A stretch of 63,875 bases of DNA, the filler included, from Porpidia crustulata (taxonomy: Eukaryota), in the NCBI GenBank assembly GCA_964255105.1. It is 19 parts of 19 records of this genome, joined end to end, with 100 filler letters (N's around TTAATTAATTAA, not from the genome) between each part and the next. Parts side by side here need not be neighbours in the genome. Positions count along the whole stretch, not along the records: positions 40,712 to 43,957 come from CAXUWE010002333.1; 18 more parts are not named here. One strand, given 5' to 3'. Position 1 is the stretch's first letter; each line of letters starts with the position of its first letter. Made by a program: the position numbers and the translations under genes. Below the pieces are notes generated by a model. The model was not told the origin of the DNA. It did no database searches and saw only the letters and a list, made by a program, of their open reading frames with translations. Of this stretch, positions 302-57,000 are shown one piece after another.

Positions 302-2113
302 TCATCGAATTTTCCGACCTTCAACCAAACGCCACAACGCCCTCAGCACAGCTAAGCCCCCGCTCTGGGTTTCTACCGTTCGGCCTCGTCCTCTGTTGTT
401 TGGATCCCGTGGCCGATCTGTTCCTGCTGAAGCACCGGTACGATAGATCTCAGGATGGTGCTGAGCTGTCAACGGGTCCTCGTCGGGTAAGCGCCACAGA
501 TCGTCGTCTGGGACCCCTCGATTGCGATAGTCTGTTCCTTCTGAGCTTGGGAGCTCGAAGTCTTCGTCGTGAGATGAAGGCAGGGGATGAGATTCGCGGC
601 CCCACCACATGCCAAACTTGCCGCTGCTGTCTCGAGTCACATATGCGGCTTTCGCATTATGTCTGATCCAAGGGCCGTAATCATCGCACTTCGATTGGTG
701 GGAAGCCGCAAGGTCATCATCAGCTTCGAACATAACTCCATCGCCATGGTCGCCTCGCGGTAGAGGAGCGCAAAACAATGTCAAATGATGAAAGAAAATC
801 CCTTTGAACGTCTGACCATCCTGGCTACAAGTCCCCGAGGAGTCGCAAGCCTCTTCCAATACACCATTGCGACCGAGCCCGGCCCATCGCCACCGGTCAG
901 CCGGGTCGTGGGCGAACCAGCCTGTTGCGATGATAACGTTGCGGATGAGTTCGTGACCGTCATGGAGATAGTGTTCGTGCCCTGTTGCTTCCCATAGCCC
1001 TCTCAAGCCGGATAGAAGCACGCCTTGGTTATAGGTGTACACTTGCTCATCTCTGATGTCGCATTTGCCAGTTCCAACGCTACCGTTCTTTCCCCCTTTC
1101 CAACCGCGGATGTGGAAGCCATCCGTGTATAAACCCCTGTTATTCCTCATATTGCTTTTCCTGAGCCAATCGTATGCTTCTGCTGCGGCGTAAAGGTATC
1201 TAGGATCGTGCGCTTTGGCCGGTGGCGATGCACTTTCTCCGATCCCTTGTTTACTGCTAAACGGAGACGTATTGTCGTCGCCTGGGAAATAAAGGTACAT
1301 GCTCACGCTCGCCGAGATATAGAGCTCGTTCGTGATCGCATTTTTGTACGGTGTGAGGTAGGGATTCCACACCATACCGCCGCCGCAAAGGGACGTATCC
1401 CATCCTTTGGCCGCCAGATCATAAAAGACTCGAGCGCGGTGTGCGAATTGAGGTATAAATTGTTGACCGTACCATCTTGACCCATTCTGGTTGATGCCTC
1501 GATCTCTGTCGTCTCCGGAGAATGCGTATTGTAATTTTGAATGCTGATTGATGAATTTGATGCTCTCCAACCAATCCAACACCACCCAAAGCATGTCATC
1601 GTGGGCTTGCGTTCGCAGGGCGAAGGCATTCTCTCCAAAGTAAAACGCCGTCAATTGCGTGAAATATCGATTGATCAAGTTCTCGTGCTCTTGGATCCGA
1701 TCCAGGACCTCCTCAGGCTTCGCCAAATCGATCGTGCATGCTATTGACTCCGTAAACGCTGAAAGCGTCGCAGAGACGTGCGTTCCCATGACCGCAGCGG
1801 TCCAGTCAATGGCGCTCGGCCAGTCTCCTTGCCAGATCTGAAAGTAGTGCGACTGCATAGTCTCGAGCGCGTCGACGAGGCTGGACAAGGCATTGAGGTC
1901 TTTGAGGGGCGCCCTCTGGTTGTCATACTGTACAGGCGGCCCATAATGAGATATGGAAGGTAGCTGCTGCTGCAAATTGTCCCCAGGACGCGAAGGATTC
2001 CCGCTTAAATACTGCTGCTCCAAACCATCGGTATTATGCGGTAAAGTAATGGTGCCTTGCGGCACCGCGTCAATTATTCGCAAGTAAAGGATCCATAGAA
2101 TAGGGAATATCAT
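302..2113 (-). CDS. Glycoside hydrolase family 76 (alpha-1,6-mannanase/Dfg5-Dcw1-like) protein
   Basis: 603-aa uninterrupted ORF with signal-peptide-like N-terminus, catalytic-type DD motif (AHDDMLWVVL), CGGGMVW, YKNAITNEL, YTYNQG and QTFKGIF motifs typical of GH76. Confidence 0.9.
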   Translation of the reverse strand: MIFPILWILYLRIIDAVPQGTITLPHNTDGLEQQYLSGNPSRPGDNLQQQLPSISHYGPPVQYDNQRAPLKDLNALSSLVDALETMQSHYFQIWQGDWPSAIDWTAAVMGTHVSATLSAFTESIACTIDLAKPEEVLDRIQEHENLINRYFTQLTAFYFGENAFALRTQAHDDMLWVVLDWLESIKFINQHSKLQYAFSGDDRDRGINQNGSRWYGQQFIPQFAHRARVFYDLAAKGWDTSLCGGGMVWNPYLTPYKNAITNELYISASVSMYLYFPGDDNTSPFSSKQGIGESASPPAKAHDPRYLYAAAEAYDWLRKSNMRNNRGLYTDGFHIRGWKGGKNGSVGTGKCDIRDEQVYTYNQGVLLSGLRGLWEATGHEHYLHDGHELIRNVIIATGWFAHDPADRWRWAGLGRNGVLEEACDSSGTCSQDGQTFKGIFFHHLTLFCAPLPRGDHGDGVMFEADDDLAASHQSKCDDYGPWIRHNAKAAYVTRDSSGKFGMWWGRESHPLPSSHDEDFELPSSEGTDYRNRGVPDDDLWRLPDEDPLTAQHHPEIYRTGASAGTDRPRDPNNRGRGRTVETQSGGLAVLRALWRLVEGRKIR

Positions 2114-2483: not shown

Positions 2484-2493
2484 AAAAGAAAAA
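2484..2493 (-). terminator. Pol III oligo(T) terminator of tRNA-Leu
   Basis: Minus strand reads TTTTTCTTTT starting 8 nt after the discriminator base (2501). Confidence 0.75.
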
Positions 2494-2500
2494 GTTTTGT

Positions 2501-2639
2501 TGACAACTGAGGGATTCGAACTTTATTGCGTTAGTCAAGAACAATTCGATCGTGGGTAGTTGACGTACCCCTCGCTCTTTCGAACAGGTAAGATACAGAA
2601 TTCCTGAAACCTGCGCCATAACCACTCGGCCAAGTTGCC
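2501..2639 (-). tRNA. tRNA-Leu(CAG) with a 12-nt canonical 37/38 intron (2591-2602) and a 48-nt spliceosomal-type intron at 53/54 (2521-2568)
   Basis: Minus strand: GGCAACT TG GCC GAGTGGTTAT GGC G CAGGT TT CAG G [AATTCTGTATCT] T ACCTG TTCGAAAGAGC GAGGG [48 nt] TTCGAAT CCCTC AGTTGTC A. Acceptor, D, anticodon and T stems all pair; long variable arm, G37 and A73 fit Leu; mature length 79 nt. Confidence 0.92.
2521..2568 (-). other. Spliceosomal-type (GT-AG) intron inside the tRNA-Leu T arm
   Basis: GTACGT CAACTACCCACGATCGAATTGTTCTT GACTAAC GCAATAAAG: fungal consensus 5' splice site, branch site RCTAAC and 3' AAG; exact removal gives GAGGG-TTCGAAT-CCCTC. Confidence 0.85.
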
Positions 2640-3329
2640 TTTCGACCAAATGGCCCTTAGCTAAAATATATTGTTTTAAACTGAGTAAATGAGTTGCACG
2701 GGTTGTCCAACTCTCTCCTGCATCTCACTCGTTTTCGACATTACCATCTTTCCAAAGCGGTATTTTCAGTGCAAGTGCAAGAGAGAGTACCAAAATTCAC
2801 AATTGCGCGAAATCGTTTCCTAGGCAAACAATTCCGGCTTTGTCACACAGCATCCGACGTATCGCTGTAGACATCGCATTCAAGGATACGGAGGATTCGC
2901 GATTGACTGTAGTATTGTTCAAAGCCGCTGTTGCCGCAGAGAATTGGTCGTATATGACGAGTCGGAACCCATATAACAATCCAACCCTTTCCATGCTACA
3001 AAATTCGCCTCCAGATTGCAGTCACCACCCTTGAGATTCTCGGAAATCTAACCCTTATCCAAGCACCCTTCCTAGCGCACAATCTCGTAGAATCTCCAAC
3101 GCAACCCCTTCGCATCACTACCAAAGCATTAGCATCATATCTCCCCCAACCAACCAACAAACCCGCTCACCTCGCCGCTCAAGCTTAATACAAGCTGAGT
3201 AACCTCTCCGCCTCCCCGCGTCAGAGATCTCAGCATACCCTCCTTGGGACCCAGACCCTCACTGCTCAATAGTCCCCGTCACCCATAAAATCCATCACTT
3301 GCACCCACCGCCTACTCCCCCTTCACTTC

Positions 3330-3429
3330 NNNNNNNNNNNNNNNNNNNNNNNNNNNNNNNNNNNNNNNNNNNNTTAATTAATTAANNNNNNNNNNNNNNN
3401 NNNNNNNNNNNNNNNNNNNNNNNNNNNNN
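3330..3429. other. Artificial contig linker N44-TTAATTAATTAA-N44 (first of 18)
   Basis: Identical 100-nt stop-codon spacer also at 6757, 10179, 13601, 17018, 20412, 23797, 27174, 30537, 33900, 37259, 40612, 43958, 47302, 50632, 53956, 57277 and 60596; the contigs between them shrink from 3327 to 3219 nt. Confidence 0.99.
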
Positions 3430-6756: not shown

Positions 6757-7211
6757 NNNNNNNNNNNNNNNNNNNNNNNNNNNNNNNNNNNNNNNNNNNN
6801 TTAATTAATTAANNNNNNNNNNNNNNNNNNNNNNNNNNNNNNNNNNNNNNNNNNNNGAATGAGAGGGTGGGGGAGGTGGTGAGGTGTGCGTGTTGCGAGG
6901 ATTTTTTGGGATGTAGAGGAGTGGTGATTTTCGGATTGAAGATTCAATGCAGATGCGGAATTTTCCGCTTTAGGTTGTATCTAAGAGCGCGTTTTGGGCA
7001 CGGCGTATATTTGGATTCATACGAGTAAAGTGAACATGACAAGGAGCATGTTTGGGTATATAAGACTAACCAGAATTTAAGAAGGTCGGAGAATTGCAAT
7101 TGATATTATAACGAGTGTTTTATTATTCTCAGGCCGATTAGCGGGATATAGAGCGATCAAGCCGACAGCGACAAGCTGCAACTTGTATCGACATCCTCCA
7201 CTAACCATTCC

Positions 7212-16431: not shown

Positions 16432-17117
16432 GGCTGCGTTGCGCTACGACATAGAATAATGCTTCATCCAGAACTCCGCCAGAAGACGGCGAGTCACAGC
16501 GCTTCACTTATTTCGAGCTTCGTGATTCGTGGTACGGGCAACGCAGATGGAAGACTTTGTTTGTCTCATGGCTCATCTTCAGGCAGAGAAGGATGTCAGG
16601 TCCACGCTATCAGATCTATCACAATCTTGACGGATTAAGGCATAGTGGCTGTGTCTGTTGAACAAAAGCAATAGAGGGCAAGGCAGACCAGTGAGTCGGA
16701 CTCCAAGGCGCCTGAATGTGTCGGTGCATGCATATACTTGGTATGGAGGTAGATACTACTGCAGTCTGTGGTTTGTAGATACCTATGATGGAGGTCTACC
16801 TGGGCGCCTGATTGGCGGCCGATCGGAACGGGACGAGACTCCCCGGGAGGCTGAGCGTATTGAGCCTATGGAGCCTGTCGAAGAGTCTCTAGCTAATCAT
16901 TCTCGCTTACTACTAACGCAGCGCTTATTGTGTGGCCCGTGACCATTTGCTTACCCAACACCCCCCAATCCCTCCAACCCTTTAACTTGTATGCGAAATA
17001 GCCACACTTCTGCAGCANNNNNNNNNNNNNNNNNNNNNNNNNNNNNNNNNNNNNNNNNNNNTTAATTAATTAANNNNNNNNNNNNNNNNNNNNNNNNNNN
17101 NNNNNNNNNNNNNNNNN

Positions 17118-19507
17118 AGTGGGGACATTGAGGGATTACTCACATCCTTCTTGATGCCATCGAGCCACTCTGGATGACGCTTCTCCACGTGTTTCCTCCA
17201 GAAACCGTCGCCCTTGAAGAGCTTGGTACATTCTGGCACTTTGCATCTAAATTTTGCTTCATCTTCTTGTTTGACATGCTTTTTGAGCTCCTCATCTAGA
17301 CCTTCCTCAACAGGCTTCCCACCAAGCTTCTTGACATCAACATTCTCAGGTTCTAGGATTTGCAAGATCTTTTCTTCAAATATCTTTACCCAATTGAATG
17401 CACGAAGAAGCTGCTGGTCGTTCTTGAACCCATTCCGTTGAAACTTCTCAACTACCGGAGAACCCGCCTCGCCATCTTCAATTGCTGCAGAAGACTCTTT
17501 GCGCTTGATAGGAAATGGCAGGCCAGACGCGCTCGCTCTTGCGGCAGCTTTTGCTGCAGAGCTCAGACTGGCCCGGGGACGACGTAGGTGACCACCCGGA
17601 CATTTTCGAATGAGTTCATGAATTGAGTCGCTCTCAAACACACAAAAGAAGCAAAAGTTGAAGACTCTACGCAGGTACTCAACCAAAAGGTCCAGTGTCT
17701 TCTTCTTGACCAGCAATTCCTCGCTGTCAATCTCCTCATCAAAAGCTCCTTCCTCCTCCTCGTCTTCTTCCTCGTCTTCCTCCCCATCCTCCATCTCCTC
17801 ATCGTCGACACCCACTATCTGCGTACTTTTCTTTTCCGGCTTCGTACTAATGGTGCCGGATGCTGGAGGTTGTAACCATCCTTTGGCTTGGAGTTCTGTC
17901 ACACGCTGCTCTACTTTGCTTACGCCGTCAGCGTCAGTCCCAAAGTTCTGATCGAACTTGGAGACCAGGCGTTTAGCTAGTTCCAGGTCTCGGTCGATGC
18001 GTTCAGGTGCAGAGAATAGATCCCATAAAGCCTTCTTCCTTGGTTCTCTTGGTGGGACATGGACACCAACATGACAGGTAAAATCTCCTCGAGATTCGTC
18101 ATAGATGGTTTTGCCGTTGATCGCTTCGAGCGCCTTCTCGGCAGTTCCGAGCATGGTCTTCGGCTCAGTCACTGCGCCATTCTCCTCGCCTTCTCCTTCG
18201 TTCTCCTCATCTCTACCATCCCCTCTTTCTGTAACGTTCTCAACCTCGGCGCTTGGATGGAGCATGATCCACCCGATTCGATGACACTTCTTCAGAGGAT
18301 TCGGATCACTTAAGCTCAGCCACCTGAAGCCCCCATCGGAGTCTCCTAGGTGCTCTTTACAAAAATCTTCGATTTTTCCACGACTTACCGTGGGCGCAAG
18401 AGTTTTGATAAGCAAAGCAGGCTGTAATGCAGACTCGTCACGAATATCTCCACCTCGGCTAGGAACAAGATCGCCAACGCCAAGAACTTCAGCCGCAGCA
18501 ACAGTTTCACCTTCTTCCCTCTCAACAACACCGCCAACGCCATTGCTTTCTGCTTTGTAGATTCCTTCCAGCGTGAACTCATCAAATATTCCGTTCTCAA
18601 CATCGCGCTCCCATTGACCGAGCGCACCTCGCCTGAAATCGGCCAGGCGTTGACGGAATGGGTCGCGTATTTCTGGCAGATATCGCTCTTTGAACCATTC
18701 TTCACTTTTGTGCTGTTGCACAAAAGTCCGAGCCATCTTGATCTGCAAATCCTCTTTGTAGGCATCATAAGCAACCTGGATCTGGGCTCTCTCCTTGTCA
18801 CGGTCTTCCCGGGTTTCTCGTTCACCTTTGATGCCTCGTTCGAATGGCCTCCGTCCTCCTTCTTTTTGACGTTCCTTGTCTTCTTTTATGTCTCGCTCGA
18901 CACGCCACCATTCTGCGAACCAATTGAAGCCAACCTGGAAGTCAAGACTAAGAGGATTTGCCAACGGGTTATTACGAATCGGAGGCTTTGCAGGAGTTTG
19001 GCCTGGGACGTAGCGATCGATATTTCCCAAGGGTGAAGGTGCCCTACGGCGATCCTCGCGGTCGCGGGAGGCGTGGTCTCTGGATTGACCATAGTAGTCG
19101 TCTCGAGGCACTCGATCACTAGGTTGGTAACGATCAATCATGACAGGGGAACGAGAGCGGGCTCGAGCGCCACGATGACCTCCACGACGGTCGTGCATGC
19201 CTATCAAGAAACGTGTAAGTACATGCAATGCTTCGAAGAGTAAGGAAACGACGACCAGCTTATCATGAATATAATTGGGGTGAATGGACGACATATTAGC
19301 AGTGATGCGAATAGAAGTGAGAAGTATAGCAGCTCGATTATAAAACAGAGGTGCAGTGTCGTTCATTTAATCCATGATTAGAGCCTTACCAGGGGATCTC
19401 CGAGAGCGATAACTATCATTGCCAAGTGGGCGTTCAAACGTGTCGTCGCGGCCATTCCATCGAGTTTCGGCCTTGATGGAGGGAGAGCGGTAAGTTTCGA
19501 ACTCCAT
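17118..19507 (-). CDS. SERRATE/Ars2 family zinc-finger protein, 3'-truncated
   Basis: FVQQHKSEEWFKERY, LDLLVEYLRRVFNFCFFC and the C2H2 finger FRCKVPECTKLFKGDGFWRKHVEKRH; first exon 19507-19390, then an intron to about 19201. Confidence 0.9.
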
Positions 19508-21266: not shown

Positions 21267-23033
21267 TCATATTGTATACGCTTCCGCTCCTTTCCCAAAT
21301 AGAAGGTGTGGCTTTCTCTCAGCCACATCCAAGATTGTCTGGGCAAAGACCGAGTTTGCCCACGCAAACCAAGGCCCTTCAGGAGGATCAGCGTCTGGGG
21401 TCTAGTAACGGTGAGGTGCACTTACTAGTATAATCCGCGATGCGCTCGACATTGATACTCTCATGCACAAGACCAAGTCTGCTTGAATCCCGTACCGCTT
21501 CCAGGGCATCACTAATTTCATTATCATTGCTGCTCGTCATTGCTTGCACTAGCCTGCTCATGGGCCATGCAAATTGCACCCCAATATGAGGCCCCCCAAT
21601 GCCAGAAAAGCCCTTGCCCTTCAGAAAGTATGGGTTCCCGGACTTCTCTAGGATCATCTTTCGGGTATTTTGATATATCTTGTTTTCCACGTCAACAAAA
21701 CCGAGTAGGGGAAGCCCGAGCAACGACGGAGAATTGGCATCATCCATGATTACAGAAGATCCATAACCATCAATTTCGAAGGCAAACACGTCGCCGTATC
21801 TCTTATGGTGTACTACGCCGTGATCCCAGATGCCTTTCTTGATGCCTTCAGACCACCTGAGTAGGGTTTCAGCGAGGTTTGCTTTGCCGGCCATTTTCAC
21901 CAGATTTGCAGTCCGTTGTAGCTCCACTGACATCATCGCATTCGAGGGAATAAGGAAACCGAAGATAGTTGCATCATCGCTTGGTCGGAACGCACTTCGA
22001 ATGAGGCCTGTACCGTCGGCAAGAGGATTACCAATTCCTCCGAGGTTCAGAGTTTCTGTCCCCACAACAGTTTTGCGCCGGAAAATATATTCGTTCCTTT
22101 CATATGCTCCTGTAGTGGAGTTGAAAGTTGGTCGAGATTGCTGATCTAGGACCGCCAAGACGGTGTCTAGAGCGGTGTACCATCTGGGTGATAGGAAATC
22201 TCTTGAGCCTGTGTTTTCATGAAATTGGTTCCCCAATGCCAGGAAATGAGCTAGCGAATCAAGTTCCCACTTGCATTCAAATACTCTGGACTGTTCATAG
22301 ACTGGATGCACTGTGTCGTCCTGTCCGTTGGCTACGGCTGAGAGACGGCTTGGCGGAGGTGGCTGGAAGGCGTTGCAATACGGAGACTCGATTACGTATT
22401 CAGCTTGCGTGTTGATGGCACCAAGAAGAAGGCTTTCTAACTTCTTGTCCTTCTTTGCCAGCGGCTGGTATTGCTTCAACTGGTTCGTTGAATCCCTCAA
22501 CCACTCTGCATTGATGTCGCCCGTTACAATAAAACTTTGAAGACCTTCCCAGTGTCCTTCATTGTGCGAGAGCTGGAAATACTTCTTGCTTTGTCTCTTC
22601 TTGCCTCCATCGTCATGCCATCTAATAGTGGTATCGAGGGTATTTGGGAAAGCATTCTCGAAAATTCGAGCGAGATCCTTGTCTTTCATGCGTGATGTAA
22701 CATCTTTAATAACCTGTTCTACAAGAGGAGACGAGAATGTTCGGCAATGTGGAGATGGTCGTTGAGACGGCAAGTTCAGAGGTCCGTGGCTCAAAGGCCG
22801 GCTGGAGCATTGATCAGCCTCACGCAGTCGGACCCAATGCGCAGGGTTTTTTAAACGTACTGTGCAACCGTTGAAAAGAGAAGATAGTCTGGACAAGCCT
22901 GCTTGTATCTGTCTGGATCAATACCAGACCTCAGAGTATCTTGATTTAATGGTTTGGCTACTCCTGCAGCTTCGCCGAGATTGTGGAACAAGCTGCTTGT
23001 AAGCAGACGCAGAACTGCGAATAGCAGCAACAT
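21267..23033 (-). CDS. Glycoside hydrolase family 125 (exo-alpha-1,6-mannosidase, Mug157-like)
   Basis: FENAFPNTLDTT, TGDINAEWLRDS, FECKWELDSL, SAFRPSDDA, MDDANSPSLL and GGPH..FAWPMS motifs; last exon RPWFAWANSVFA after intron 21377-21425; start codon uncertain. Confidence 0.9.
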
Positions 23034-40611: not shown

Positions 40612-41067
40612 NNNNNNNNNNNNNNNNNNNNNNNNNNNNNNNNNNNNNNNNNNNNTTAATTAATTAANNNNNNNNNNNNNNNNNNNNNNNNNNNNNNNNN
40701 NNNNNNNNNNNGGGTGGGAGATGGGGGTGGTGAATGTAATGAGTATCAAAAGCGTGACTCCATCTTGTAATTGGTGTGTGAAATACCAAATGAATCTGTA
40801 AATCTCTGGCGGTATAATCGAACATGCGGATTGATTTGTGAGCGTATACGTTTTGATTACGGACAGCAACGTGACCATCGGTGGTGTGACGAAAAGGGCC
40901 GGATCTCGGAAAAATTCATGTACATTGATAGAGACCTGGGGATGCTCATATGAAGAGGAGATGGGTAAGGGAGCTGCGCGCGCGGGTGATCAGTTGAGTT
41001 GATATTATATCGAGCTATATATGTTCGAGTTGGGGATCGTAGTCATTTTTCGCAATCAAGTAAATTG

Positions 41068-41086
41068 TATATATATATTATAAAAA
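41068..41086 (+). promoter_or_regulatory. Upstream TATA element of tRNA-Gly
   Basis: TATATATATATTATAAAAA, with TATAAAAA starting 30 nt upstream of the mature tRNA 5' end. Confidence 0.6.
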
Positions 41087-41108
41087 GAAGACATTCTACC
41101 ATGTAGTA

Positions 41109-41237
41109 GCGTTAGTGGGTAAGTCACAATGTCTACATTACCACAATGTCTTCGCTAACAGCCACAAAGTTTAGTGGTAAAATTCGTCGTTGCCATACTG
41201 TATCGACGAGCCGGGGGTTCGATTCCCTCCTAACGCA
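41109..41237 (+). tRNA. tRNA-Gly(GCC) with a 51-nt spliceosomal-type intron at 10/11 (41119-41169) and a 7-nt canonical 37/38 intron (41196-41202)
   Basis: GCGTTAG TG G [51 nt] TTT AGTGGTA AAAT T CGTCG TT GCC A [TACTGTA] T CGACG AGCC GGGGG TTCGATT CCCTC CTAACGC A; perfect acceptor and anticodon stems; 71-nt mature fungal tRNA-Gly. Confidence 0.94.
41119..41169 (+). other. Spliceosomal-type (GT-AG) intron inside the tRNA-Gly D stem / A box
   Basis: GTAAGT CACAATGTCTACATTACCACAATGTCTTC GCTAAC AGCCACAAAG: perfect 5' splice site, branch site and 3' AAG; exact removal restores TGGTTTAGTGG. Confidence 0.88.
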
Positions 41238-41249
41238 CAACGTTCAATA

Positions 41250-41286
41250 TTTTTCCTTTTTTTATTTTTTTGTTTTTTTGTTTTTT
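41250..41286 (+). terminator. Pol III oligo(T) terminator of tRNA-Gly
   Basis: Five T5-T7 runs beginning 13 nt after the discriminator base. Confidence 0.85.
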
Positions 41287-42497
41287 AGAATACTCGAACG
41301 ACTACCTTCCTACCTTCCTACTTAAGTTATTGAGCCTTCATACCTAGTTGGATTATAATCTACGTCATCTACTTTAGAGCGCCACTACTGGTTTGATGCA
41401 ATTGTGACTTGTTTGCTTTATGTTCCTCTTACGCAGGTTGCAAACCGCGGCGTTCTACATGTGTTCCTATCATTGATCTACTTGTTTTACTGAGGCGAGT
41501 CAGTGACGAGATGGGTCAACAGCTTTCGGTTTGGAGACTGATGTAGATAAGGTGAGGGTGCGAACGAGTATGGTGAAGATTGATAGACTGAAATACATCT
41601 AGGATACCTGGGTCTCTGGAGTTCCACCAGCTATCACAACGCCACCCTTCACACTTCACACTTCAGGCAGTAAAGACAGAATGCCATGAATATGGGATCG
41701 GGGCGCCTCAGCTACGGAAAACTTTTCTTTCCTGTTCCATGCTCGAGTTGGCTTTTTCACATCTTGGAGACATTGCTTCACAACATTTACTGTATAATTG
41801 ATTCCGTTAAGGACACCATTAAGTTCCCCAAGGAATATACGAACCCGAGAAAGAATGGCTGCCTTACAGCGTTTTCTTTCACGTTTTCCTTATCCTTTGC
41901 TTTCGCTGCTATATTACTGGTGCTTCTTGGCTTCTTCACAACTATTCTATCGGATTTATTCATTCTCCTCGCAATTTTGTCATTGGAGTTAGGCATCAAT
42001 ACTCGATGCAACGTGATGAAGGGCGCTATATTCCCGATGAGGACATCTATGGAGCCGTATCCGAACGTCTTGCATGCAAAATCCAATTTGAGAGGGCAAT
42101 GAATTTGGTTTTTGGACCTTCGCGTTGCACCAACAAGTCGATGGCTGCGTTCTGTTGGCTATGCCTGAAGCCTTCATCGAATATTGCTTTCGTAGCATTC
42201 ATCGTGCGCGGTCATTAACTAATTTTCAATACTATGAATCTCAATTTGTATCGTTCGTTCCTTGATAATGTCACCAAGATCTTGGATACATAAGGGCTAG
42301 CTATGCCCACTGGCTTCTTTTCTCAGCAGGAGGTAGAATTGAGAGCGTACAACAAAACCAAGCAAATCCATTCTTACTAAGCTAACAGAATCATATTTGA
42401 GCCCACATCTTCTCGAGCATCAAATACTTCGTGATAAAAGGATCTACTTCATACAAACCCATTTTCGGTACGAAATCTCGGCTTCTACGAATCTAGT

Positions 42498-43304
42498 ATG
42501 GGGCCTAGACCCTCTGAGAGATGGATCTGTGACCCTTGCTCAACAGCCAACGAGGCTTTCTCCATCAAGTGCGCATACTGCGATCTTGATTATGATCCAA
42601 GACGCTGTCGGACGGCGGAACCAGTTGGTTTCCGTGGATCTTATGTTCGCCAGTCTTCGCAAGCCTCTGGAGAAAATGAACGATTGGGTCTACTGAACCC
42701 CTCCACTGGAAATGACAATAGCCAAGTGCAGCAAATCCCTCAACAGAATCGACAAACAGAACTTTCAACTAACTCTCCTGTCTATCCTACTGGTCAAGTG
42801 CACCAAAGATCTCAACGGACCATACAACCATTTCTATTGCAGAGGTTCACCTCCCACGATGATCAAGCGTCGGCCTCGCAGCATGATAATCTCAACTTCG
42901 CTCCCTACTCAAATCTGCATGGCAGCTTACATGACCCTTTAGTCCGCCGTCATGATGAAACCTATGACCAGTACATAGAAAGGCGTGCGAGAATACGACT
43001 TGAGTGGCCGGAAGAAGAAAGATTATTGGTGAGGCAGCAAGGAGACTTGAACCTCGTGTTCTATGGAACTCGTACGCCCCGAGTTCCATTTTCCCACCGA
43101 CCAGCGGCGCAGAACTCCCAACCCGACGACGAAGAATCCGGCGACGAAGAATCCACCGACAAAAGCTACGCGCCCTCCAAGGTTTCCCGTGGAAAGCAAA
43201 AACGTACGCGAGATTCGCCCAGCGACGATGGTGGTGACGGGAAGGGTGGCACAGAGAAGGTCACTTGGACGCCAATAAAACAAGCTAGAAAGAGTTACTC
43301 TTAA
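42498..43304 (+). CDS. Hypothetical protein with N-terminal RanBP2-type zinc finger
   Basis: WICDPCSTANEAFSIKCAYC matches W-x-C-x2-C-x3-N-x6-C-x2-C exactly; the remainder is low-complexity. Confidence 0.65.
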   Translation: MGPRPSERWICDPCSTANEAFSIKCAYCDLDYDPRRCRTAEPVGFRGSYVRQSSQASGENERLGLLNPSTGNDNSQVQQIPQQNRQTELSTNSPVYPTGQVHQRSQRTIQPFLLQRFTSHDDQASASQHDNLNFAPYSNLHGSLHDPLVRRHDETYDQYIERRARIRLEWPEEERLLVRQQGDLNLVFYGTRTPRVPFSHRPAAQNSQPDDEESGDEESTDKSYAPSKVSRGKQKRTRDSPSDDGGDGKGGTEKVTWTPIKQARKSYS

Positions 43305-44057
43305 TCAGTATGTACGTGGGGTGAGGAGGGAGCACATGAGCGGAGGAGAGGACGTGGTCGGGGGCAGATCCAAAAGCGTGCTTTTCCGCGGTCGGGGTAG
43401 TAATGGGCGGGGTGTGGTGTTTCGATTTGCCAAGAGTAATGACGGTCATATTTCGGGTGTTAATGTTCAGGATAATGTGGATGATAGACGGTACGATGGA
43501 GATTTCGGTTATATTATTGTTCCAATCAACTTTCACTTCCGATATCTTCCTCGCCGTCGCACCGAAATGCCCCGTCTTCTTCGAGAAGTGAAAGACGGTC
43601 GTGCGGGAGGGTACACCCACAGAAAAGCTTCATCGCGTGAACGTCGCAGCAAAGCAGCATCGCTCCCAACATCGAAACCCCCGCGCGCCCGAAGTCTCCC
43701 ACACATACCGTTCCCCGCGTAATTCCAATCGCAAAAACATCTGCTTTCCCCAAATCTTCTAATAACAGCCTCTTTCCTCATCACGCTCCCCCTCCGACAG
43801 ACATTTATTGCTACAAATCTTTGAGATACGCTGCAAACAGTGCTCGAAGAAGTGGGAATGGCGCTTAAATTCACGGAGTAGAAGGAGGGATGCGGAATGA
43901 GCGGTTGAATGTAGGGAAGAGGCGGGATGGTTGTTGAGGTGCGGGAGGATGGGGAAGNNNNNNNNNNNNNNNNNNNNNNNNNNNNNNNNNNNNNNNNNNN
44001 NTTAATTAATTAANNNNNNNNNNNNNNNNNNNNNNNNNNNNNNNNNNNNNNNNNNNN

Positions 44058-44438: not shown

Positions 44439-45733
44439 ACTTGCTGTTGGTTCTTGATGATTTCATTCTTTGGTTCGTGGTTTTCAGTCTTCGGTTCTTG
44501 AGTTTTTTGCTTTCGTACAAACGGGTCTGAGCACTACAAGTTACTGTTGTGGGAAGCCGTAGAATGGGATGATATCTCTACTTCGTGGCTCTTTACAGTC
44601 CTTTTGTGTGTCAATTCCCTTGTCCATTTCTTTACACATCTGTCGCTAGGTCCTCTGGTTTTCATCAAAGATAAGATCATTGTGTGTGTGTGCATATTTG
44701 CACCAAAATGTTGTTCTTCTTTGTGCCTTTGTAGACTTCTCAACACCAGCCAGTGAAATCGGAATAACCCGGCTATCTGTGAAGACTTTGCGATATGACA
44801 TATCTCATAATGCCGTGCAGTCTACCAGGACACAGTGCGTCGAACTTGACAAGTAGAATTTCCGAGTTGTAATAACTCGTCGGTCATCGCTTTCAGCGGT
44901 CTCGATCCTCTCCGGCGTCTCGCAATGGTCACATCAGGGTCAGCCATTCTCGTGAAGATAGGGCTCTGTGCCTTCTAGTCTAGCGCCTTGCCTATCCTGC
45001 TTCTGATTAATTCTCAACAATCATAATACTTTGACTGCATTAATTTTGCAGTAGAATTGGGTAGTTTCTCAACATATAACAATCGTCGATATTTCTTTGT
45101 TTTCTAAAAGACCATTGTCACGCAGTTCGAGCATTCAGTCCCTTATCGAAATGCTTGACACCAAACCATGGTCATCTCAACGTCCGCCTAGCTATCGATG
45201 ATGGAGGATGCGACGGAGAGCCGTATTCCTCGTCTCCTATTTCTCACGACTCTCCAACTCGCCTTCCCGGCAGGTAGCATGTTTTGACACCCTTTCCAAG
45301 ACCACAAATATGTCAACTTATCACGGTCCTAATTGGCTTTGAAACTTCAATGTCTATGGTTCCTTATACTAAATTCATTGAGATGTTAGTGATTGATGGG
45401 GCCACAGCCGGTTTGCTGCAGGTTCATGTAGTAGCCCGGCTTCAACATTGTCTGAGTCGCCGCCAGACTTTTCATAGCGCAGAGTAGCGTTGGAGGGACT
45501 TTGGCATGGGAGTAGCAGAGATGTCCGCTTGGCTCCAGTCTTTTGTAGCGACGAATGAGGGTGCAATGCCAACATAGCTAACCAAACTTCTGAATGGTGA
45601 ACCTAGGGTAGGGCTTCTCGGCTAGATTGAGTCTAGTGTGAATGTTATCGCCGCAAACGCGACGATTTGATGGATCTCAAACGGATAACCTAGACGGTAT
45701 TAAATACACTACATCCAAAAGAAAGCCTCCATC

Positions 45734-46926
45734 ATGGATTTTGCCTCTTTGATGTCCACCGAAATATCCAAATCCCGTAAAAAACCCCCTCCAGACCCCT
45801 CGACAGAATCCACAAAAAAGTACCTCAAGCAAGCCGATATCGAAGCCCAACGCCAACAAGCATACCTTGACGAGCAAGCCGCGATCCAACGCGATCGGGA
45901 GGCTAAGCTGTTCAAGAAGCGTAAATTTGAAGAAGAGGAAGCCACGCGGAATCAAGAGCGAGATGAGAAACGGCGACGTTTAGCAGAGGAATCTCGTATT
46001 AGAAGAGAGGAGGAGGAGAGAAGGAAAGATAAAGCGAGAAGGAAGAGATTAGGGCTTCCAAAGCTACCAATTGAGGGAGCAGGTGATGCGGATGGAGCTC
46101 CAGTACCGGATAACGAGCAGGCCATCACCGAGGACGAACTACTGACCAAATTACGAGCGCTGAACGAACCGGCCATTCTATTCAGCGAAAGTCACAAACA
46201 ACGCCTCCGCCGCTATCGTCAACTAACAACCCCGTCCTCCCAATCCCTTCAAACAACCGGTCCCATTCCCACAACCCTCGTCTTGCTCCCCGAATCCGAG
46301 ATGAAAGTTCCCTTCACCCTGCCACAAGACCCAGACGTGCGAGCCTTCCTCTTCCGACAATTAGCATCCTATTTCACCATGGTGCTCACTGAATGGACAA
46401 TAGCTCTCAACCAACGAAATGAAGATGTAAAACAGAGTTTCCAAGGTAAAGCGGCGCTGAACGCCATGGTGCAGTCACGGGAGAACATGCGCCCCCTTTT
46501 CAAGAAATTCGAAAAGGGGGAGCTGGAAGATGGGATTCTGGAGCCTGTGGTAGAGATTGTACGAGCAGCGCAGGAGCGGCGGTATGTGGATGCCAACGAC
46601 GGATATCTACGATTAAGTATCGGGAAAGCGTGAGTCTCCATCCTGCACACCAACACCTCCTATCATTCCATCATCCTACACAAACCCCTTTCCCAGGACA
46701 CATCGCTAACGTAGAGACCACCTCCTTCAGGGCATGGCCAATCGGCGTGACAATGGTGGGTATCCACGAACGCTCCGCGCGGGAAAAACTCCACGAAAGC
46801 GACAAGGGGCAAGCGCACATCATGAGCGACGAGGTGACAAGGAAATTTTTACAAAGCATCAAGCGATGTCTGAGTTTTGCGCAGACCAGGTGGCCGCCGG
46901 ATGATCTGATGCAATTGATGGGGTAG
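45734..46926 (+). CDS. PRP18: Pre-mRNA splicing factor Prp18
   Basis: PRP4-like motif KLRALNEPAILFSESHKQRLRR and Prp18 domain [32 protein letters not shown] across intron 46630-46730. Confidence 0.95.
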
Positions 46927-54055: not shown

Positions 54056-57000
54056 GAGGCGCATCGGGTGGTTGAAGTTGTAGGCGGTGCGGACGGTGCG
54101 AGAGTCGAGGGGACCGGCGTGGGGGAGGATGGCGTAGCGGATGTGGTGGCGGCCTGGAACGAAAGGATGTTAGTGAAATTTGGTTTAAAGTGGAGAACAA
54201 AGAAAATTTCTCCAAGGTTCCGGCTTACCCATATCGGCATGAGCGTCTGGAGCTTTGGGCGCTCTTAGAAGAGACAAGCGCATCATGTTGCCGCACGTCG
54301 CGAAGCCGTACTTGCTATCGTTCATTATCGAGACCCCGTAGCCGTTCTCTGATAGATCGGCCCATTTATGGCAACAAACTTCGAACTTCGCCATGTCCCA
54401 GCTGGTGTTGTAGTGAGTAGGTCTCCGAATGATACCGTACTGAGTCTCGTAGGAGGCTTCGGTATTGACAATATCCACGGGGAATTCGACCTTGAGGAAT
54501 TTCATGTTCTCTCGCCATTCAATCTCGCTGGCCATTTCGACGTACGATGGCTGGCCCTCGATGCTCGCTGCTAGGCTGATGGTGGTCCTGACCCAGCTGT
54601 GCTCACTGATCTTGGTCTCCGTGACCAAGCTCACGAGGTGAGGCCCATGCTCTACAATCTCGCTTTCGCCTGGCGGTAGCTCTTGTCGCGATTCAAGGTG
54701 GTAAACCTCTACATCCCAAGCTTGCCAGTAAAGCGGCTTGTCGTCAAAGATGACGAGTTGGTTTGCCTTCCCGCCCTTAGCGATGATCTCGCGCCTTTCA
54801 AGGACATCAAAAAGCGAGGTGATTGCTCCGCCCTCAACTTGGAGCCTGTAGTGCTTATTTGACAGCTGAAAGACGCCTTTCTTGACCTCTTTGATGGACG
54901 CCGACGAGTTGACACTCTTCGATGGTCCCGAAAGTAACTCCACGGCGGCAATACCCGTGTTTCCTCTCACCAAAGCAAACTCTGAGGCTTTAGACTTCGA
55001 AGCTCCGGGAACTTTCATTATCTCCGCACGAGGCCAGGGAGAAGTATTGATAGCGGTCGGGGTACACCCATTCGCCCCGTGCCTTGAAAACCCAAGAGTG
55101 CACAAGGCTTCTTTCATGACGTCCTCGCCAGTCTTGAAGACTTTAGCGTAGAGCTCATCCGAATCATCATAGCACATTTCGATGCAGCTTCCGGGAAGAC
55201 AATCATGAAATTGACACAGTAAAATGTTTTCCCACATATCGTCGATATCCTTCTTAGGATACCTATAAGACTCATCCTTCATTGAGGCCAAGGTAGCAAG
55301 GTACTCAACATCATGCATCATGATTTCCGTCTTTCTATTGTTCCATTTGTTGTTGGCTTGTGTAGTGTAGGTGCCGCGATGAAGCTCGAAATAGAGCTCC
55401 CCATACCAGGTGACAAATTCGGTGCCATTCTCTGCTTTCAACTCCAGCCGATCGAAGAAGTCTTCAACCGAGTTACCCATTTTAACTCGAGGTAGTAACC
55501 CAACTTTGTCACTTATTCCTCGGCACCTTCGGAGTTTCTCTAGGTGCTCCCACGTTGGCCCTCCTCCACCGTCGCCTTTACCGAACATGAGTAACGAGGT
55601 TTTGTCTTGATCCATGGACTTATGTTGAGTTATGCTGCGCTTTACGTCACCAAAGTTCGCATCAGCGGTGTATGTTTCTGAGGGCGCCATATGACATATG
55701 ACTTGGCTGCCATCGAGAGACACCCATCGGAAGGTAGTGTGAGGAAAGTTGTTGATATTGTTCCAGCTGAGCTTTTGAGTGAAGAATCGACTCATCCCAG
55801 CAAGACGGCACAACTGCGGAAGCTGGCTCGAGTACCCAAAGGTATCTGGTAGCCAGAAAGTCCTGCAACGTTCGCCGAAGTGACTCTCAAAGAATCGTTG
55901 ACCGTACAGGAATTGACGGACGAGTGATTCTCCACTAGGCATATTTGTGTCATGCTCGACCCAGCTACCGCCAATGGGCTGGAAGGTACCTTTCTTAACT
56001 TTGGACTTGACGCGGTCGTATAAGGGCGGGTAAAGCTGTTCAAGCCATTTGAATTGCTGAGCTTGCGAGCATGCAAAACGATGCTCTGGGTAGCGCTCCA
56101 TAAGATTGCATTGATTAGCCCAAGACCGGGCAACTTTCCGCTTTGTTTCTGCCCACGGCCACAACCAACAGGTATCAATGTGACAATTTCCGACAGCAAA
56201 AACGATAGTTTCTTCACCCGAGTCGTAGACTTTAGACGAATCGACGTTACTGCCAATATACTTGCGCGCGATCTTTCGACCCTCCACGATGGATTGTTGG
56301 CTTCCATGACCTGCAATGAAAGTATTCATAACAGCATTACCGACTTGAAGAGCTTCATGCGACTCCCAAGAGTCTCCGGGAAATTCTCTTGCTGCGTCTG
56401 TATTGGAATTAGCTACTGCACAGCACGAACTTTATGCTTCCTACCTCCAATTTGCCAGAAGTCAATGTACAGCGCTCTGGCCTCTTGGTTGATGGCAAGG
56501 ATATCTGCCAAGTATAATTGAAAGTATACGTCTGGATGTGGTGGCTGAATTATATCCCCTTCCGCATTACCAAACATGCGATTGCAGGCCATTTCGATAT
56601 AAAATGTGTGGAATTCACCGTCTCGGAAAGACTTCGGAATGATCCATTCTCTGCGCTCTCCACCTCCAGTAAGGCCTTGAAGCGGTTCACCATCTTCACT
56701 CCATACGAGTCCTTCATTGTTCGCATCCCAATGAAACTCGAGCAGCTCGAATTCCTTCATGTGCGACGGCACCTTTAGTTGAATTTTGAACCAGTGCGTT
56801 GACCAACTTGGCCCGAACGATTCGCCCACATTGGTTTCCTTAAAGTCTTTCGATATTGCCTCCTTGAAGGTGGGCCGTGCAAGATCTGGAGGGGAATAGA
56901 CCGAGAGCTTTACGTAGTCCTCCCCAGAGGCTCGTCCGTGATAGAACTTCCTATATTTCCCAATTAGTATATATCTGAGGTCCTAGAACCTAGTCACTAA

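Follow-up and report, generated by a model that had tools for sequence, protein, structure and literature searches.

Candidate spliceosomal introns beside canonical 37/38 introns in two tRNA genes of the lichen fungus Porpidia crustulata

A stretch of 63,875 bases from the genome assembly of Porpidia crustulata (GCA_964255105.1), hereafter the window, was analyzed for transfer RNA (tRNA) genes. It is composed of 19 contigs of 3.2-3.3 kb each, placed end to end in descending order of length. Runs of N recur every ~3.3-3.4 kb, and each of the 18 junctions consists of 44 N, TTAATTAATTAA and 44 N; these junctions (3330-3429, 6757-6856, then onward to the eighteenth) are artificial linkers, and the genomic sequence searched for tRNAs and for copies of their inserts amounts to ~62 kb. 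Exactly two tRNA genes were found in the window, a tRNA-Gly(GCC) gene on the plus strand and a tRNA-Leu(CAG) gene on the minus strand, each of them interrupted twice: (i) by a large insert of about 50 nt within the tRNA body, which carries the signals of a spliceosomal intron, and (ii) by a short insert at position 37/38, next to the anticodon. The Gly gene belongs to contig 13 (40712-43957) and the Leu gene to contig 1 (1-3329). Hence, the two genes are not physically linked here.

The tRNA-Gly(GCC) gene (41109-41237, plus strand) measures 129 nt with its inserts and 71 nt once mature, as delimited by ARAGORN, Rfam and standard base pairs. Its first exon (41109-41118, plus strand), assigned by direct reading and from the ARAGORN cloverleaf, provides tRNA positions 1-10, i.e., the 5' strand of the acceptor stem, U8, G9 and G10. 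The large insert follows (41119-41169, plus strand, 51 nt), splitting the D stem between positions 10 and 11. It is of the spliceosomal type, with GTAAGT at its start (41119-41124), a CTAAC box (41155-41159) whose branch A is at 41158, and a terminal AG (41168-41169), the distance from branch A to this AG being 11 nt. The short 37/38 insert (41196-41202, plus strand) is the heptanucleotide TACTGTA, placed by both ARAGORN and Rfam; ARAGORN sets it one base rightward (ACTGTAT), a register that leaves the mature RNA identical. Upstream of the gene, a TATA-like AT tract (41066-41087, plus strand) was recognized by direct reading; it includes TATAAAAA at -30 to -23 relative to tRNA position 1 and may serve as a promoter element. 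Downstream, a cluster of T runs (T5, T7, T7, T7 and T6; 41250-41288, plus strand) begins 13 nt past the discriminator and resembles a terminator of RNA polymerase III (Pol III), a function that it would fulfil. The Gly large insert also contains a perfect 10-nt direct repeat (CACAATGTCT) at 41125-41134 and 41142-41151, with a period of 17. Besides, TTACCAC (41139-41145) and the D-loop sequence GTGGTAA are exactly complementary, and CCAC, which occurs again at 41162-41165, can pair with GTGG.

The tRNA-Leu(CAG) gene (2639-2501, minus strand) measures 139 nt with its inserts and 79 nt once mature, and was delimited by ARAGORN and by a full-length match (1-71) to the Rfam model. Its spliceosomal-type large insert (2568-2521, minus strand, 48 nt) is located between position 53 of the T stem and position 54 of the T loop. 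It starts with GTACGT (2568-2563), contains ACTAAC with the branch A at 2531 and ends with AG (2522-2521), 10 nt separating branch A from the terminal AG. The 37/38 insert of this gene (2602-2591, minus strand, 12 nt, AATTCTGTATCT) was placed by Rfam, and the cloverleaf forms only once it is removed. A TATA-like tract, AATATATTTTA (2662-2672, minus strand), at about -33 to -23 of the gene, is a putative promoter element, and T5 and T4 runs (2484-2493, minus strand), starting 8 nt past the discriminator, would act as a Pol III-type terminator. An earlier note on this DNA had given 41119, 41202 and 2591-2602 as insert coordinates, and direct reading of the sequence found them exact.

The raw window yields no tRNA with ARAGORN or with Rfam at its gathering threshold. 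When the threshold was made permissive, the Rfam tRNA model matched at two places only in the whole window, namely 41168-41229 (plus strand, Gly, 28.2 bits) and 2501-2639 (minus strand, Leu, 26.5 bits), for a gathering score of 29. Matches of a B-box pattern search were confined to these same two loci, and no uninterrupted tRNA gene was detected in the ~62 kb by ARAGORN, Rfam or the B-box pattern. By contrast with the raw window, the sequences from which inserts had been removed in silico gave clear calls. After removal of 41119-41169, ARAGORN identified tRNA-Gly(gcc), its anticodon loop holding a 7-nt intron, and after removal of 2568-2521 together with 2602-2591 it identified a tRNA-Leu(cag) of 79 nt. 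When the small insert alone was taken out of the Leu gene and the large one kept, ARAGORN found nothing. For the Gly gene treated likewise, the only call was a spurious one, and it appeared solely when the intron option was on.

In both restored cloverleaves, every stem pair is standard, with two G-U pairs in each molecule, and the conserved bases of both loops are kept (GG in the D loop, TTCGA in the T loop). The positions of the inserts are also apparent from the Rfam alignments. For Gly, the match begins directly after the D-stem insert and the anticodon loop holds 9 bases against 2 in the model (7 extra). For Leu, 55 bases stand against 7 in the model T loop (48 extra) and 15 against 3 in the model anticodon loop (12 extra). 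The alignments thereby agree with ARAGORN on a canonical 37/38 intron of 7 nt in Gly and 12 nt in Leu, which bears out what the earlier note had said of both tRNAs. Two sets of ARAGORN calls were discarded. Removal of the large insert only from the Leu gene gave a selenocysteine call, SeC(tca), with a 14-nt intron; this is a miscall, as removal of both inserts gives Leu(cag). At a lowered threshold, 16 calls with introns of 50-2409 nt were returned, and the one inspected elsewhere in the window (43398-43540) is not a tRNA.

For each large insert, two boundary placements give the same mature RNA, and one of the two reads GT...AG. In both genes, a 5' splice site GTRNGT stands precisely at the boundary that restores the cloverleaf, and a branch box CTRAY is found near the terminal AG. 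A composite signal was then scored, defined as a segment of 48 or 51 nt with a GT[AG][ACT]GT start, an AG end and CTRAY 6-30 nt from this end. Among the 244,610 segments of these lengths in the window, four carry the signal, and both inserts are among the four; the inserts are far beyond what chance provides. The two large inserts also share their exon context, ..GG|TT.. (41115-41118/41170-41171 in Gly; 2571-2569/2520-2519 in Leu), which is not the classic AG|G proto-splice site, and both end with AAAG.

These signals are like those of the mRNA introns of the same genome. The reference is an intron of the gene for Prp18, a second-step splicing factor (45704-46923, plus strand, contig 14; Pfam Prp18 and PRP4 domains). 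This intron (46630-46730, 101 nt) reads GTGAGT..GCTAAC..CAG, and it could be verified because the flanking exons match consecutive parts of Pfam Prp18 with an in-frame junction. Other candidate introns were obtained by a heuristic joining open reading frames (ORFs), which returned a small set of 12 that includes some false members. The four of these 12 candidates that most resemble introns (53, 59, 59 and 78 nt) begin with either GTAAGT or GTACGT, and their CTRAY lies 11-13 nt before the 3' end. The large inserts are similar in their signals to the Prp18 intron and to these four candidates. They are unrelated to each other and have no further copy in the ~62 kb of the window, where no sign of an introner family was seen either. 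Hence, each of the two genes kept its splice signals independently.

A different machinery could nevertheless be considered for the removal of the large inserts, which might be real introns cut not by the spliceosome but by the tRNA splicing endonuclease (TSEN) at non-canonical sites, as in Cyanidioschyzon merolae, or by an activity like the one that takes D- and T-arm inserts out of the nucleomorph tRNAs of cryptophytes. In the available part of one survey (PMC4090602), non-canonical introns of the D and T arms are described only from nucleomorphs (3-24 nt), from C. merolae, where they form a bulge-helix-bulge (BHB), and from Archaea; in nucleomorphs and C. merolae they are at times accompanied by a canonical intron. 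The eukaryotic endonuclease is moreover reported, in the source as far as accessible, to cut BHB substrates. In the present case, both large inserts failed a BHB test in which the hBHBh' geometry was scored at splice-site pairs. The Gly insert reached 3/4 in the central helix, 1/3 in the outer and 0/3 in the inner helix, and the Leu insert 1/4, 1/3 and 2/3, respectively. In Gly, the exon bases that the motif would need are already used by the acceptor stem. Besides, the length of about 50 nt contrasts with the 3-24 nt given for nucleomorphs in that portion of the literature, and a non-spliceosomal activity would leave the 5' splice site, the well-spaced CTAAC and the terminal AG of both genes without reason. 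Removal by such an activity is therefore very improbable.

Compared with the introns of C. merolae, of cryptophyte and chlorarachniophyte nucleomorphs and of Archaea, as presented in the accessible text of PMC4090602 and PMC3728597, the two genes have in common the presence of D- or T-arm introns beside canonical 37/38 ones, and the intron site 53/54 of the Leu gene is also known from Archaea. However, the introns of these systems are either 3-24 nt long (nucleomorphs) or bounded by a BHB, and are cut by the splicing endonuclease or by an unknown activity, whereas the inserts described here are of ~50 nt, lack a BHB and carry spliceosomal signals.

The short inserts are of another kind. Both are found at 37/38, one base 3' of the anticodon, which is the position of the canonical introns cut by TSEN/Sen enzymes (PMC4090602, PMC10485636, in the parts at hand). 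According to the same part of PMC4090602, canonical eukaryotic tRNA introns are 6-133 nt long, and 7 nt (Gly) and 12 nt (Leu) are inside this range. The 7-nt Gly intron, which the earlier note had called very short, is indeed near the lower end, but it is not unprecedented. With respect to the anticodon-intron pair, a pairing of U32 with G(-3) is possible in Gly on reading by hand. In Leu, U32 faces U(-3) and no pair is evident; the anticodon CAG can pair with the intron CTG. A heptamer, CTGTATC, is present near the 3' ends of both 37/38 inserts, which are otherwise unrelated (41196-41204 and 2591-2598), in differing registers to the 3' splice site. By a rough, uncomputed estimate, the chance of such sharing is ~1/100, and the heptamer may be either a coincidence or a trait of canonical tRNA introns in this lineage.

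The DNA thus gives good support to the view that each of these tRNA genes holds intervening sequences of two kinds. The earlier note had proposed a precursor tRNA processed by two machineries, and its premise of two intron kinds per gene stands, given the splice signals, the restored cloverleaves and the lack of a BHB at the large inserts.

Direct reading of the flanks gives a TATA-like tract near -30 and downstream T runs in both genes, and the longest T run inside either large insert is of 2. In fission yeast, an upstream TATA element guides transcription by Pol III. The flank features of the two genes fit such a mode of transcription and may reflect it. The internal boxes were compared with the A-box and B-box consensus sequences. 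The Gly B box is perfect relative to its consensus. In both genes, the final AG of the large insert occupies the place that GG has in the intact gene; in Leu this place is at G53, and the B box of Leu thereby departs from the consensus at one position. The U6 intron of Schizosaccharomyces pombe is said, in the title of one paper, to hold a B-box-like sequence. The depletion of T runs in the inserts was considered as evidence and set aside, as candidate mRNA introns of this genome also rarely contain runs of T>=4; it is compatible with Pol III and not diagnostic.

Part of these features would be shared by transcription through RNA polymerase II (Pol II). Under this alternative, the large inserts are spliceosomal introns of Pol II transcripts, made alone or as longer capped RNAs, from which RNase P and RNase Z release the tRNA after splicing. 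A TATA-like element at about -30 suits Pol II as well, a cap-assisted, co-transcriptional splicing would ease the recognition of a 10-nt first exon, and the internal Pol III boxes are interrupted. However, the T5-T7 runs 8-13 nt past the discriminators and the lack of T>=4 inside the inserts both correspond to needs of Pol III, and the B box has at most one mismatch. Moreover, the fission-yeast U6 RNA is a Pol III transcript that is spliced (PMC5855946, in the part available), and Pol II appears quite unlikely as the polymerase involved.

Taken together, the loci are best read as spliceosomal-type introns within working nuclear tRNA genes that also have canonical 37/38 introns, most likely transcribed by Pol III and spliced in the manner of U6. 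A probability of about 0.6 is assigned to this reading. Its main rival is that both genes are dead, i.e., recently inactivated by an intron that was reverse-spliced or otherwise inserted, Gly(GCC) and Leu(CAG) being supplied by intact copies elsewhere in the genome. In the available part of PMC4090602, insertions in the D and T arms of other eukaryotic tRNA genes are presumed to be marks of pseudogenes and usually regarded as such. Moreover, the A box of Gly and the B box of Leu are split, both genes score below the Rfam gathering threshold, and the expression of the interrupted genes is a prediction from their sequence. Nevertheless, no decay is visible in either gene: the stem pairs are standard, the D-loop GG and the T-loop TTCGA are present, and the terminators and upstream TATA-like tracts are intact. 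Two unrelated inserts both retain full splice signals, and both tRNA genes of the window are interrupted with none intact, which is unlikely for a rare dead minority. We consider inactivation of the two genes as rather unlikely.

Several other points weigh against working, spliceosome-processed tRNA genes. Intact Gly(GCC) or Leu(CAG) copies are possible elsewhere in the genome. Both large inserts end with AAG and not with the preferred YAG, and their lengths (48 and 51 nt) are slightly below that of the shortest candidate mRNA intron (53 nt). The 5' exon of Gly, 10 nt plus leader, is very short for a substrate of the spliceosome. The Gly A box is split after G10, its AGTGG core being untouched, and the A-box-like sequence that follows the Gly insert, if used by TFIIIC, would place the start of transcription inside the intron. 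Finally, the common origin of the Gly contig with the other contigs is supported by tetranucleotide composition only, because its one long ORF is without homologue. Concerning the A box, the first exon of Gly together with two upstream bases (41107-41118) ends with AGTGG, and we take it to be like a second, slightly stretched A box. As a speculation, the use of 41107-41118 by TFIIIC would, even with the A box split, let transcription begin upstream of the tRNA.

If both genes are functional, we infer from these features their transcription, the polymerase, the removal of the large inserts by the spliceosome and the order of the steps as follows. Pol III would be guided by the B box and by the TATA-like tract near -30, read through both inserts and halt at the T runs. 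The nuclear spliceosome would then recognize GTAAGT or GTACGT, CTAAC and AG, and the intron of ~50 nt would leave as a lariat, as in the U6 RNA of fission yeast. Only afterwards could the D arm (Gly) or the T loop (Leu), hence the tRNA elbow, be formed. With the elbow in place, the ends could be processed, the tRNA exported and the short intron cut by TSEN.

The earlier note had also proposed an ordered pathway, in which the arm intron is removed first, and this order plausibly applies better to Gly than to Leu. In human TSEN, as depicted in the accessible portion of a 2023 review, the enzyme sits at the point where the acceptor stem meets the D arm and anticodon arm. As the Gly insert splits the D arm contacted by TSEN, an action of the spliceosome before TSEN is reasonable for Gly, and would be plausible in view of the TSEN structures. 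The D arm of Leu is intact and the order is therefore more open for this gene. The TSEN of budding yeast is active in the cytoplasm, on tRNAs already exported; if it is cytoplasmic here too, compartmentation alone would impose that the spliceosome acts first.

Folding predictions were obtained for all precursor forms. The mean pair probability of the acceptor stem was 0.95-0.99 throughout, and that of the anticodon stem was 0.98-1.0 in Gly and 0.57-0.72 in Leu. In Leu, the mean pair probability of the T stem dropped from 0.99 to ~0.26 with the large insert, which would disturb the elbow. Thermodynamic folding was of little use as a test of order for Gly, since its AU-rich D stem is predicted to be unpaired even in the mature RNA.

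The alternative is that no order is obligatory: TSEN could cut the 37/38 intron with the large insert still present, at least in Leu, and both intermediates would exist. The acceptor and anticodon stems are predicted to form in the precursors, and the D arm of Leu, a TSEN contact, is uninterrupted. On the other hand, the D arm that anchors TSEN54 is split in Gly, the predicted T stem of Leu falls to the low value given above, and, with TSEN in the cytoplasm as in budding yeast, the tRNA would have to be folded, end-matured and exported beforehand. A free order is considered less likely than not. A coupling between tRNA supply and spliceosome activity, which the earlier note had expected from the ordered pathway, is a consequence of this model and not an observation.

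Spliceosomal introns in genes for non-coding RNAs have precedents in fungi. The accessible part of a 2018 review (PMC5855946) lists them in the genes for U6 (transcribed by Pol III), U2, U5 and U1 small nuclear RNA (snRNA) and for ribosomal RNA (rRNA); tRNA is not listed in this part, which also describes the determinants of insertion into non-coding RNAs as unclear. As recorded there, mRNA-type introns are found in U6 of S. pombe and in U6, U2, U1 and U5 of Rhodotorula hasegawae (Tani and Ohshima, 1989, 1991; Takahashi, 1993, 1996, all cited in PMC5855946), and spliceosomal introns in the ribosomal DNA of ascomycetes (Bhattacharya et al., 2000, cited in PMC5855946 and PMC6652019, as far as these texts were available). 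The tRNA inserts have in common with the fungal snRNA introns that they are short, of the GT-AG type, with a branch box, in a structured non-coding RNA that is partly a Pol III product and in a fungal host, and reverse splicing is proposed as the origin in both cases. However, a tRNA is not part of the spliceosome, so that the insertion finds no explanation in "proximity to the active site"; the tRNA precursor has a second, endonuclease-type intron, and its spliceosomal splicing is a prediction. Similarly, the rRNA introns are of the spliceosomal type and belong to ascomycetes; their host gene is outside the Pol II class, which would also hold for the tRNA genes, and works through a folded RNA product. 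They reside in multi-kilobase Pol I transcripts, whereas the RNAs considered here have 71-79 nt and promoter boxes that are disturbed.

No report of spliceosomal introns in tRNA genes was found in the literature searched, which leaves most subscription journals uncovered and the absence unproven. A tRNA precursor with two machineries has no described counterpart in that literature, and the best reading is that tRNA genes join those fungal non-coding RNA genes in which mRNA-type introns are already known. Recent papers (up to 2026), in their available parts, describe tRNA splicing as a process that does without the spliceosome, and see no relation between the three nuclear intron classes, each of which has its own substrates. 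A precursor needing both machineries would break this separation of tRNA splicing from the spliceosome. If the proposed reading is true, tRNA would join the short list of RNAs not made by Pol II that have spliceosomal introns (U6, rRNA). It would also offer a natural substrate for studying how the spliceosome handles a tiny, uncapped and structured Pol III RNA with a first exon of 10 nt.

The number of such genes may be considered in the light of published lichen-fungus genomes, for which 67 tRNAs in 44.6 Mb and 56 in ~39.8 Mb were annotated (PMC9946308, PMC12960683). This density of ~1.4-1.5 tRNAs per Mb leads to ~0.09 expected in 62 kb, and two were observed, both interrupted, in short contigs of a fragmented assembly that are possibly an unfair sample for tRNA density. 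Should these contigs be representative, there could be more interrupted tRNA genes than detectable ones. The mean length of the annotated tRNAs of Cladonia uncialis is 92 nt (PMC9946308, PMC12960683), a value suggesting that tRNA genes with introns are numerous in lichen fungi. It may tentatively be proposed that a large share of the nuclear tRNA genes of this fungus, perhaps of Lecanoromycetes generally, have spliceosomal introns in the tRNA body, a generalization that we hold as less probable than not. In such a case, the spliceosome would be an obligatory enzyme of tRNA maturation with Pol III transcripts as its substrates, and one precursor of 130 nt would be processed in sequence by two splicing machineries that are unrelated. 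Standard tRNA finders would moreover overlook much of the tRNA set, which would help to explain the low counts of 56-67. The tRNA sets of lichen fungi would be incomplete, as would the analyses of codon usage and tRNA adaptation that use them.

Regarding the origin of the large inserts, the most likely route would be reverse splicing into the tRNA, followed by reverse transcription and recombination. Such a reverse-splicing route has been proposed for the introns of fungal snRNA genes (PMC5855946, in the accessible part), and the two genes would be fresh cases for this model of intron gain. An origin by duplication of the flanking exons was also considered and rejected: the only similarities are a TCGAAT hexamer (Leu) and the 7-nt complement of the D loop (Gly), attributed to chance by a rough hand estimate. 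DNA of relatives was sought by scanning metagenomes with a 16-nt pattern (intron AG plus D loop), which proved poorly suited. The 122 matches, from 121 loci, were almost all in bacterial-type tRNAs, where ..TAG precedes an identical D loop; a loose splice-signal test let two of the 122 through by chance, and no interrupted tRNA was among these two. A gapped pattern for an intron-bearing Gly gene gave 0 matches in prokaryote genomes and viral contigs, as expected for collections without lichen fungi.

We take the host of both genes to be the lichen mycobiont, a Lecanoromycete judging by protein similarity. The contigs have a G+C content of 0.46-0.53, and the tetranucleotide composition of each correlates with that of the others with a mean r of 0.61-0.71. 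On the Gly contig, an ORF of 268 amino acids (42498-43304, plus strand) is either an orphan gene or no gene: it has no homologue besides itself among 5.8 billion proteins and matches no Pfam family, and the small ORFs of this contig have no credible Pfam match. Ordinary fungal genes are found elsewhere in the window, including a homologue of ARS2/SERRATE (17066-19366, minus strand), a GH125 mannosidase (21391-22800, minus strand) and an Ams1-like GH38 alpha-mannosidase (54185-56329, minus strand). On the contig of the Leu gene, a GH76 protein is encoded (302-2113, minus strand) ~390 nt downstream of the tRNA and on the same strand. Its best named relatives, at ~55-64% identity, are lichen-forming Lecanoromycetes, mostly metagenome-assembled genomes of Teloschistaceae, and the highest identity among all its relatives is 78%.

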